Source: Convolutriloba macropyga
Lineage: Eukaryota
Direction: 5' to 3'
Length of the DNA: 64,000 bases
Assembly: GCF_964194025.1 (NCBI RefSeq)
Contig: NC_134472.1
Span: forward strand, 18,228,001-18,292,000
This document shows positions 58,624 through 59,246 of this stretch, in pieces. The notes below the pieces were generated by a model, which was not told the DNA's origin, did no database searches, and saw only the letters and a list, made by a program, of their open reading frames with translations. Made by a program: the position numbers and the translations under genes. Each line of letters begins with the position of its first letter. Within the stretch, counting starts at the first letter, position 1.

Positions 58624-58986
58624 TTAGTTTTGGTTTCCTTCGAGTTGATTTATTTTGTTTTGCAAAAATTTAATTCGATTCATCAGATTTGCGTTCTTCT
58701 TCTTTTCTCGTAGGAAGTTTTGCTCCAGTCCTAGTGTGTATGTGTCTCTCTCGTTGTTGAGGTCTGCTGTTATAAACTGGTAAGGGACTGTTAAGTTCTG
58801 TTTGTCGAGTGGTATGTTCTTTAGGCGATATGTCTTTAATTTCGAGTTATAAGATTGAATCTTATAAATGTTTCCCTCGGGTAATACTCTGTATTGCAGG
58901 CCCCAGTCAAAATTTGGGTGTCCTCTGAATTGCCTATTTCTTGTTCTTTCTTCGTTGAATTTCTGCCTTTCTAATCTTTGCTCATG
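58624..58986 (-). CDS. 120-codon open frame lacking an upstream ATG (HEQRLERQKFNEERTRNRQFRGHPNFDWGLQYRVLPEGN...NANLMNRIKFLQNKINQLEGNQN*), with a C-terminal leucine-zipper-like heptad
   Basis: Hand-translated and stop-free for 360 nt in AT-rich DNA. It is absent from the ORF track because it lacks a start. It begins directly after ...CCTTAG, which is either a stop codon or a possible acceptor. Confidence 0.5.
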   Translation of the reverse strand, partial: HEQRLERQKFNEERTRNRQFRGHPNFDWGLQYRVLPEGNIYKIQSYNSKLKTYRLKNIPLDKQNLTVPYQFITADLNNERDTYTLGLEQNFLREKKKNANLMNRIKFLQNKINQLEGNQN

Positions 58987-59246
58987 CTAAGGATCCGTGG
59001 TTCTATAGGGCAGATTGTAGCTGTGGGCTTCAAGTGTGTAGCTGTCGGAGCAATCGTTACTTCTGTTAAATCCAATTTTTTTTCTCCTCTCCCGGTATTG
59101 ATAATTTGCATACTCTTCCCTGGTATAGTTTGTACTGGTTGTCGCTCTGGTGGTTCTTGTTGCTGGCCCATTAGTTCCTCGAAGGTATCGGGGAGAATGA
59201 AGTCGTCTATATCCGGCATGTCGTCGTCACCTTCGTATCCTAAATT
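58971..59246 (-). CDS. Accessory protein exon 2 (NLGYEGDDDMPDIDDFILPDTFEELMGQQQEPPERQ...)
   Basis: Acceptor gtttctatttttag|AAT at 59247/59246 lies 9 codons upstream of, and in frame with, the listed 82-aa ORF. Its phase is compatible with the donor at 61966. Confidence 0.55.
   Translation of the reverse strand, partial: NLGYEGDDDMPDIDDFILPDTFEELMGQQQEPPERQPVQTIPGKSMQIINTGRGEKKLDLTEVTIAPTATHLKPTATICPIEPRILSMSKD

Follow-up and report, generated by a model that had tools for sequence, protein, structure and literature searches.

Elements of the Ty3/gypsy group that carry an env gene are usually treated as simple gag-pol-env elements. The stretch of DNA analyzed here, a 64-kb segment from the acoel Convolutriloba macropyga that we call the window, contains the 3' end of such an element and, on the minus strand behind env, an open reading frame of 120 codons that lacks a start codon. 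An earlier note on this DNA had proposed that the frame is reached through a 74-nt intron and that it supplies the basic region and leucine zipper of a transactivator-like protein of 210 amino acids. This raises the questions of whether the frame is coding, how it is connected to the rest of its gene, and what the product might do for the element. Based on the present data, we assign this frame with very high confidence to a genuine, conserved accessory gene of the env-bearing Ty3/gypsy element, of which it constitutes the back half.

The element and its 3' end

The gag gene and the rest of pol are located upstream in locus L031, where protease, reverse transcriptase, RNase H and integrase follow each other in gypsy order. 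With its order LTR-gag-pol(PR-RT-RH-IN)-env-LTR, the element has the layout of env-bearing Ty3/gypsy (errantivirus-like) elements. The env product matches the Pfam family PF24664, which we take to be equivalent to a gB-type env. The features of the 3' end are listed in Table 1.

Several peculiarities of this copy and its relatives should be mentioned here. The env gene of the window copy is disrupted by a 325-nt tandem duplication at 60647-61245, and its gag gene in L031 is also split by a stop despite the near-identity of the two LTRs. The element is flanked by a direct repeat of 174 nt (99.4% identity; window 57899-58072 and L031 6504-6677), which is far longer than a normal target-site duplication. 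The pol gene is very long, with about 1,900 codons (L031 1-4332, L032 5250-9968), and the stretch between protease and reverse transcriptase had no Pfam match; judging from its appearance, it is presumably macrodomain-like.

Table 1. Features of the element's 3' end in the window, with the evidence for each.
Feature	Position	Strand	Evidence or remark
pol end (integrase core and C-terminal domain)	62642..64000	-	Pfam
Putative internal promoter in the pol-env spacer	62300..62510	-	TATA-like box near 62337; palindromes 62426-62441 and 62484-62500
env (Pfam PF24664, Monjiviricetes fusion)	59382..62058	-	Pfam match; split by the tandem duplication
Exon 1, 28 codons common to the env start, followed by a GTAAGT donor at 61965	61966..62049	-	RefSeq 233-aa models begin with exon 1
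Exon-2 splice acceptor (pyrimidine run and AG, phase 0)	59247..59258	-	Junction agrees with RefSeq models
Exon 2, N-terminal half (acidic, then Q/P/T-rich; predicted disordered)	58971..59246	-	80/90 identical to residues 29-118 of P0039
Overlap of both frames with a frameshift private to the window copy	58971..58986	-	0/40 siblings in the window's phase
Exon 2, C-terminal half (the 120-codon frame; ~118-233 in the RefSeq-type protein)	58624..58986	-	112/116 identical to residues 118-233 of P0039
Predicted five-stranded SH3/KOW/Tudor-like barrel	58759..58926	-	Strands 31-34, 40-47, 52-57, 64-68, 72-74
Predicted parallel coiled coil (helix 79-117)	58636..58752	-	AlphaFold2 core and homodimer model
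Three U3 palindromes (TGGGA-N7-TCCCA-type), 26 nt apart	58420-58488	-	Ahead of a TATA-like box near 58409
3' LTR	58072..58579	-	99.8% identical to the 5' LTR over 508 nt

A spliced accessory gene behind env

The startless frame (58986-58624), its overlap with the end of a 91-codon frame (59246-58971) and its R/K-rich beginning are present in the sequence as the earlier note described them. The frame is also coding, as had been supposed, since it differs from that of a sister subfamily at 30.5 synonymous versus 4.5 non-synonymous positions (pN/pS 0.037). We compared the window copy with 40 sibling loci, 29 of which came from the 40 other best matches listed by a DNA search and 11 more from the best matches of a protein search; due to this selection the set is biased towards well-kept copies. 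In 27 of these loci the frame was open for 200 codons or more, forming a single exon of 202-212 codons that runs from the exon-2 acceptor straight through the proposed intron, and the remaining 13 were broken elsewhere, many of them at one A-run. Both halves form one exon in these 27 siblings and in the RefSeq models, and in this respect the idea that the hidden frame completes an accessory protein was correct.

The GT at 59060 and the AG at 58987 that would delimit the 74-nt intron do exist, and in the window copy alone a cut between them would connect the two frames in phase to a bZIP-like protein of 210 amino acids. Nonetheless, this segment is not an intron, as most siblings are open through it. 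In none of the 40 siblings is the GT in the window's phase relative to the downstream frame, which means that removal of the segment would put every one of them out of frame, and the AG is missing in 7. The 24 codons concerned, which are part of the N-terminal half of exon 2, show six synonymous and one non-synonymous change between subfamilies (p = 0.0014) and pN/pS values of 0.06-0.14 in five pairs; by these substitution patterns the segment is under purifying selection as protein. Moreover, it is retained in the RefSeq-type protein, which has 233-235 instead of 210 amino acids, and the residue spacing of a bZIP domain is lacking ahead of the zipper. We therefore rejected the intron and consider the spliced 210-aa product extremely improbable. 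The earlier note had itself named an indel specific to this copy as an alternative, and this alternative is the one that holds. As sequenced, the accessory gene of the window copy is thus broken. The frameshift is possibly a true mutation and possibly an assembly error, because the env duplication and the gag stop in the same copy are compatible with decay as well as with faulty assembly.

The gene as a whole is annotated in RefSeq as a splice from the 28-codon exon shared with env to the exon behind env, the predicted 233-aa proteins (XP_075248249.1, XP_075251444.1, XP_075258953.1 and XP_075249952.1) consisting of 28 plus 205 residues. The two frames of the window copy correspond to residues 29-118 and 118-233 of these models, and named proteins of the same 90% cluster belong to C. 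macropyga. The GTAAGT donor was present in the window and in all eight family-A loci inspected, and the AG and T-run of the acceptor were kept in 41 of 41 loci. Neither the joint of exons 1 and 2 nor the 74-nt joint occurred among the 15 listed of 55 joints, which came from DNA-like contigs of four runs and therefore speak neither for nor against expression.

Apart from family A, to which the window copy belongs, two further families in the genome have the gene. Family B, with dozens of copies, is 33% identical to A, and family C has a frame of 284-288 codons that carries the same core behind env. In all three families a phase-0 GTAA donor follows 17-28 env codons and a phase-0 AG acceptor lies behind env; by pattern matching, the donor was found in three of nine B loci and in six of six C loci and the acceptor in seven of nine B loci, the C acceptor being chosen among several AGs. 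The pN/pS values of exon 2 ranged from 0.07 to 0.15 in family A (five pairs), from 0.13 to 0.24 in B (five pairs) and from 0.21 to 0.32 in C (three pairs, two of which gave significant selection in the core). Judged from these comparisons of sequences, the gene is old and maintained, and its layout is shared by three divergent families of the genome.

Outside relatives of the protein comprise P0018, P0021 and the P0033/P0067 group with 54 members. With these queries the best matches in the genome (G000) were 55% identical for P0018 and about 41% for P0033/P0067, and there was none for P0021 at 1e-25. Since these relatives are without a close match in the genome, the accessory gene likely occurs in other genomes too. 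A profile search of 1.84 billion representatives yielded 25 matches, 23 of which were assigned to the accessory group on the basis of scores and of 18 inspected sequences; the matches P0027 and P0032 proved to be repeats and were set aside as chance. Metagenome and viral contigs gave no genomic context for the outside relatives, a weak search returned no longer (fused) relatives, and no published account of the gene was found in a literature coverage that extended neither to subscription papers nor to bioRxiv supplements.

A number of copies deviate from the standard arrangement. Between subfamilies (window 58072-59384 versus L032), identity is 89-92% for exon 2 and the LTR but 98.6-99.6% for env, with mostly synonymous changes, which suggests that the 3' regulatory module of exon 2 plus LTR was swapped as a whole. 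Dozens of decayed accessory exons form a tandem array with a spacing of about 1 kb at G000:C3:41121580-41172005. In L077 (3486-6353), env and the accessory exon are contained in one frame of 956 codons, probably via a deletion, and beside a family-B insertion in L069 (3567-4508) there is an open frame for a coiled-coil-rich protein of 314 amino acids without a family match. Family C, exemplified by L117 (2517-3469 and 7566-8397), has five extra ORFs of 103-109 amino acids, of which three are located ahead of env and two beyond the accessory exon. These look paralogous, as seven of ten pairs scored above all 1000 shuffles; the three that were scanned had no Pfam match, and most of the five are free of stops in five other copies.

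Predicted fold, palindromes and a possible regulatory circuit

None of 16 members of the accessory protein family matched a Pfam family, and a search of PDB sequences gave no relatives (best E 0.27, confined to the coiled coil). An AlphaFold2 model of the full exon-2 product was poor (pLDDT 48.6), residues 1-86 being unstructured, which we read as disorder. The model of the core, based on 16 sequences, reached a pLDDT of 84.8; it begins with a helix, continues with five strands that include a short helical turn, and ends in a helix of 39 residues. The beginning of the protein is strongly acidic in family A (19 D/E and no K/R among the first 55 residues) and in exon 2 of family B (15 and none). 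The exon-2 start of family C is not acidic (6 D/E, 6 K/R), that of the P0067 group is less acidic than in A and B, and the starts of P0018 and P0094, both of which may lack their true starts, are not acidic either.

The long helix corresponds to the proposed zipper. Of the heptad pattern described in the earlier note, Leu101/108/115 and the a-position residues Asn98, Ile105 and Ile112 are indeed present, but only these three leucines are in strict heptad spacing. The suggested C-terminal dimerizing coiled coil is nevertheless borne out by a predicted parallel homodimer, which scored 0.39 versus 0.01 for the best of three controls and has its interface residues (87/91/94/98/101/105/108/112/115) in an a/d pattern. 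Contacts agreed between runs by at least 64%, with a partner pLDDT of at least 54. Of true eukaryotic pairs, 17 of 29 attained the mark used for this score (7 of 16 in the case of animal pairs), whereas none of 30 single chains did.

By contrast, the protein is not a basic-region leucine zipper. In bZIP factors, the basic region shows the spacing N-x7-R/K-x9-L directly ahead of the zipper. Here the barrel stands between the basic patch and the zipper, the patch is located about 60 residues upstream and is not kept in families B and C, and the sole occurrence of the N-x7-R/K-x9-L spacing, at residue 25 of the window frame, belongs to the barrel itself and is absent in family B. The best Pfam bZIP match was sub-threshold (bZIP_2, E 0.84, in 2 of 16 members), and there was none for the window frame. 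For these reasons we rejected the bZIP identity. What the accessory protein has in common with bZIP factors is that it ends in a predicted parallel zipper whose d positions are occupied by Leu and whose a positions are occupied by Asn or Ile; it differs in that a beta barrel, and not an adjoining basic region, precedes the zipper.

The predicted barrel matched the KOW domain of Spt5/NusG, Tudor domains, the MRG15 chromo domain, an ssDNA-bound PWWP domain and R67 DHFR, with Z-scores of up to 6.7 (5.8-6.7 for the KOW, Tudor and PWWP barrels), rmsd values of 1.8-2.8 Å over 50-56 residues and Foldseek E-values of 0.016 and up. No match was strong in the sense of a Foldseek E below 0.001 or a Z of at least 8. 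At the top of the list, KOW is not ahead of the Tudor (TDRD3, SMN, PHF1/19), MRG15 chromo and PWWP domains, which rank equally with it. The model thus fixes the fold class as a five-stranded SH3-like barrel, and it does not fix family and function. We also considered the barrel as a duplicate of the C-terminal SH3 domain of the integrase and rejected this candidate, the profile probability of 0.08 being below that of shuffled controls; as the alignments were shallow, this origin is unsupported rather than excluded.

On the cis side, the pol-env spacer of 600 nt contains a TATA-like box in a context that resembles the one in the LTR, and we infer that the spacer is a promoter. All nine matches to TGGGA-N4-7-TCCC in the 64 kb (five sites, 0.4 expected) fall inside U3 or the spacer. 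In the LTRs of L032, L033, L037 and L075, the number of U3 palindromes is three to four across subfamilies. In family A, LTR and spacer resemble each other over the 45 nt that precede the TATA-like boxes (p 0.0005-0.03), and the same applies to family B (p 0.0005-0.017), in a test of 25 pairs with anchors picked by eye. The motifs are shared internally in A and B, but differ between these families: A LTRs did not match B spacers (p 0.49-0.85), and B LTRs matched A spacers weakly (p 0.015-0.17). In family C no LTR-spacer match was obtained with the chosen anchor (p 0.81). Unanchored local alignment supported the similarity in A (0-3 of 100 shuffles reaching it) and did not support it in B (36 of 100) and C. 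The palindromes could also be sites of host factors, as TGGGAA presumably resembles CSL or Ikaros-type sites.

We tentatively favor, as a plausible reading held with somewhat less than even confidence, that the accessory protein acts as a dimer to switch on transcription from the LTR and from the internal promoter of its element, in the manner of foamy virus Tas; a dimeric factor on the palindromes had also been the idea of the earlier note. The spacer promoter would then produce an RNA from which env is made if it stays unspliced and the accessory protein if it is spliced. Through the coiled coil, a pair of barrels would be positioned on a palindrome, one on each half-site, and the acidic tail might recruit the transcription machinery. 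Positive feedback on the internal promoter would come first and activation of the LTR thereafter, as with foamy virus Tas. This reading is consistent with the dimer model, with the acidic beginning of the protein in families A and B, with the transcription and chromatin barrels among the best fold matches and with the palindromes shared by LTR and spacer. Points against it are that the fold scores are middling, that the ligands of SH3-like barrels can also be RNA, proteins or methylated peptides, that family C keeps the core without an LTR-spacer match and without an acidic exon-2 start, that the similarity in B was not recovered by unanchored alignment, and that the palindromes may serve host factors.

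The same observations bear on a second explanation, in which the barrel would recognize marks on chromatin or attach to silencing proteins of the host, so that the protein would be a co-activator or anti-silencing factor and the palindromes would be bound by host factors. The tie of Tudor, MRG15 chromo and PWWP domains with KOW and the presence of the core in family C without an evident shared palindrome speak for it, but these matches are no better than those to other folds of the SH3-like type. In addition, the LTR-spacer motifs differ by family, a comparison of two families only, and this is easier to reconcile with a reader that the element itself encodes than with a host factor, which would be fixed. 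We consider this explanation unlikely. Even less probable is a non-nuclear role, in which the coiled coil would help to assemble particles, take part in trafficking or manipulate the host cell. A nuclear signal with clear conservation was not identified, and in other gypsy elements the products of accessory ORFs work at membranes (PMC11952523). However, the spliced product is devoid of a transmembrane or signal segment, and its acidic disordered tail and type of barrel suggest work on nucleic acid or chromatin.

The leading rival is a factor like Rev, Rec or CERV, which would export unspliced env and genomic RNA, both retaining the intron, from the nucleus. The strong splice sites within env create a need for such a factor, and KOW barrels, which are among the fold matches, contact RNA. 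Furthermore, HERV-K Rec, itself an export factor, shows the same arrangement of a first exon at the beginning of env and a second one at its far end (as outlined in PMC2649029), and this layout counts against a transactivator. The gypsy element Cer1 also has an export factor, CERV (PMC10309623). On the other hand, an arginine-rich motif is not evident in the accessory protein, where no stretch of 12 residues has more than 2-4 Arg, its export-signal-like motifs are at unrelated positions with none shared across families, and it has no structural likeness to CERV, judged by the description of the latter. Export would also leave the palindromes common to both promoters unexplained. We regard it as rather unlikely, and return to a Tas-like transactivator as the preferred reading.

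Comparison with known systems

By its layout, the accessory protein resembles several known regulators, and by sequence it is a member of none of the families searched.

The Tas protein of foamy viruses has two targets of activation, the LTR and an internal promoter (PMC13220597). As with Tas/Bel1, there is an accessory gene behind env, an internal promoter (here putative) besides the LTR and a regulator, here a proposed one, acting on both (PMC13220597). The activation domain of Bel-1 is called acidic in a title cited by PMC13220597, and the accessory protein of families A and B likewise has an acidic beginning. Unlike the present element, foamy viruses belong to the Retroviridae, have their internal promoter at the 3' end of env and express env from the LTR (PMC13220597). 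The element analyzed here has its putative promoter in the spacer before env, shares exon 1 with env and has a gypsy-type pol; the accessory protein had no match in the Pfam Tas families or in PDB sequences.

Splicing within env from a first exon shared with env, the trait of Rev, Rec and Rem, is found here in the RefSeq models and the conserved splice signals. As in Rec of HERV-K(HML-2), the first exon is the start of env and is spliced just before the hydrophobic signal region to an exon at the far end of env (PMC2649029). In Rec, however, the function resides in a first exon of 87 amino acids with an Arg-rich NLS and an NES, and the second exon encodes 18 amino acids (PMC2649029), whereas here exon 1 is short and acidic and a second exon of 205-288 amino acids carries the folded domains.

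CERV of C. elegans Cer1 is, like the proposed regulator, a spliced, element-encoded nuclear regulator of a gypsy-type element with a leucine zipper (PMC10309623). It differs in having 517 amino acids, five exons that are partly common to gag, H/M/G domains and a role in RNA export, and an SH3-like barrel is absent from its description (PMC10309623). CERV-mediated export works without a Rev motif (PMC10309623).

Tor3b and Tor4b of Oikopleura are also gypsy-like gag-pol-env elements with env expressed from an internal promoter, which in Tor4b is located in the spacer behind pol (PMC4402516). Their env RNA is made without splicing, and no accessory gene behind env is reported in the part of PMC4402516 covered. 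The ancient errantiviruses are similar in being multi-copy, young gag-pol-env Ty3/gypsy elements of invertebrates (PMC13524379). In the main text of this survey the terms 'accessory', 'internal promoter' and 'leucine zipper' do not occur, and its seven supplementary files contain no Convolutriloba, Symsagittifera, Hofstenia or Xenacoelomorpha (PMC13524379).

Taken more broadly, it is possible, though doubtful enough to be put forward only with reserve, that a lineage of gypsy-type endogenous retroviruses of invertebrates independently became 'complex retroviruses', with a sequence-specific transactivator of a new class (acidic tail, SH3-like barrel, coiled coil) in each family, expressed from an internal promoter with palindromes co-evolving with the LTR, and one family adding five paralogous accessory genes. 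If the accessory protein is a transactivator, self-encoded transcriptional control would have arisen outside the Retroviridae, by means of a DNA-binding module not known for such a role, and protein and palindrome would be a testable pair. Even if it is not, it constitutes an unannotated protein family, and three divergent multi-copy families keep this spliced gene under selection. The layout as a whole appears to mix traits that are known separately: the internal promoter of foamy viruses, the env-shared exon of HERV-K Rec, and the promoter before env of the Tor elements.
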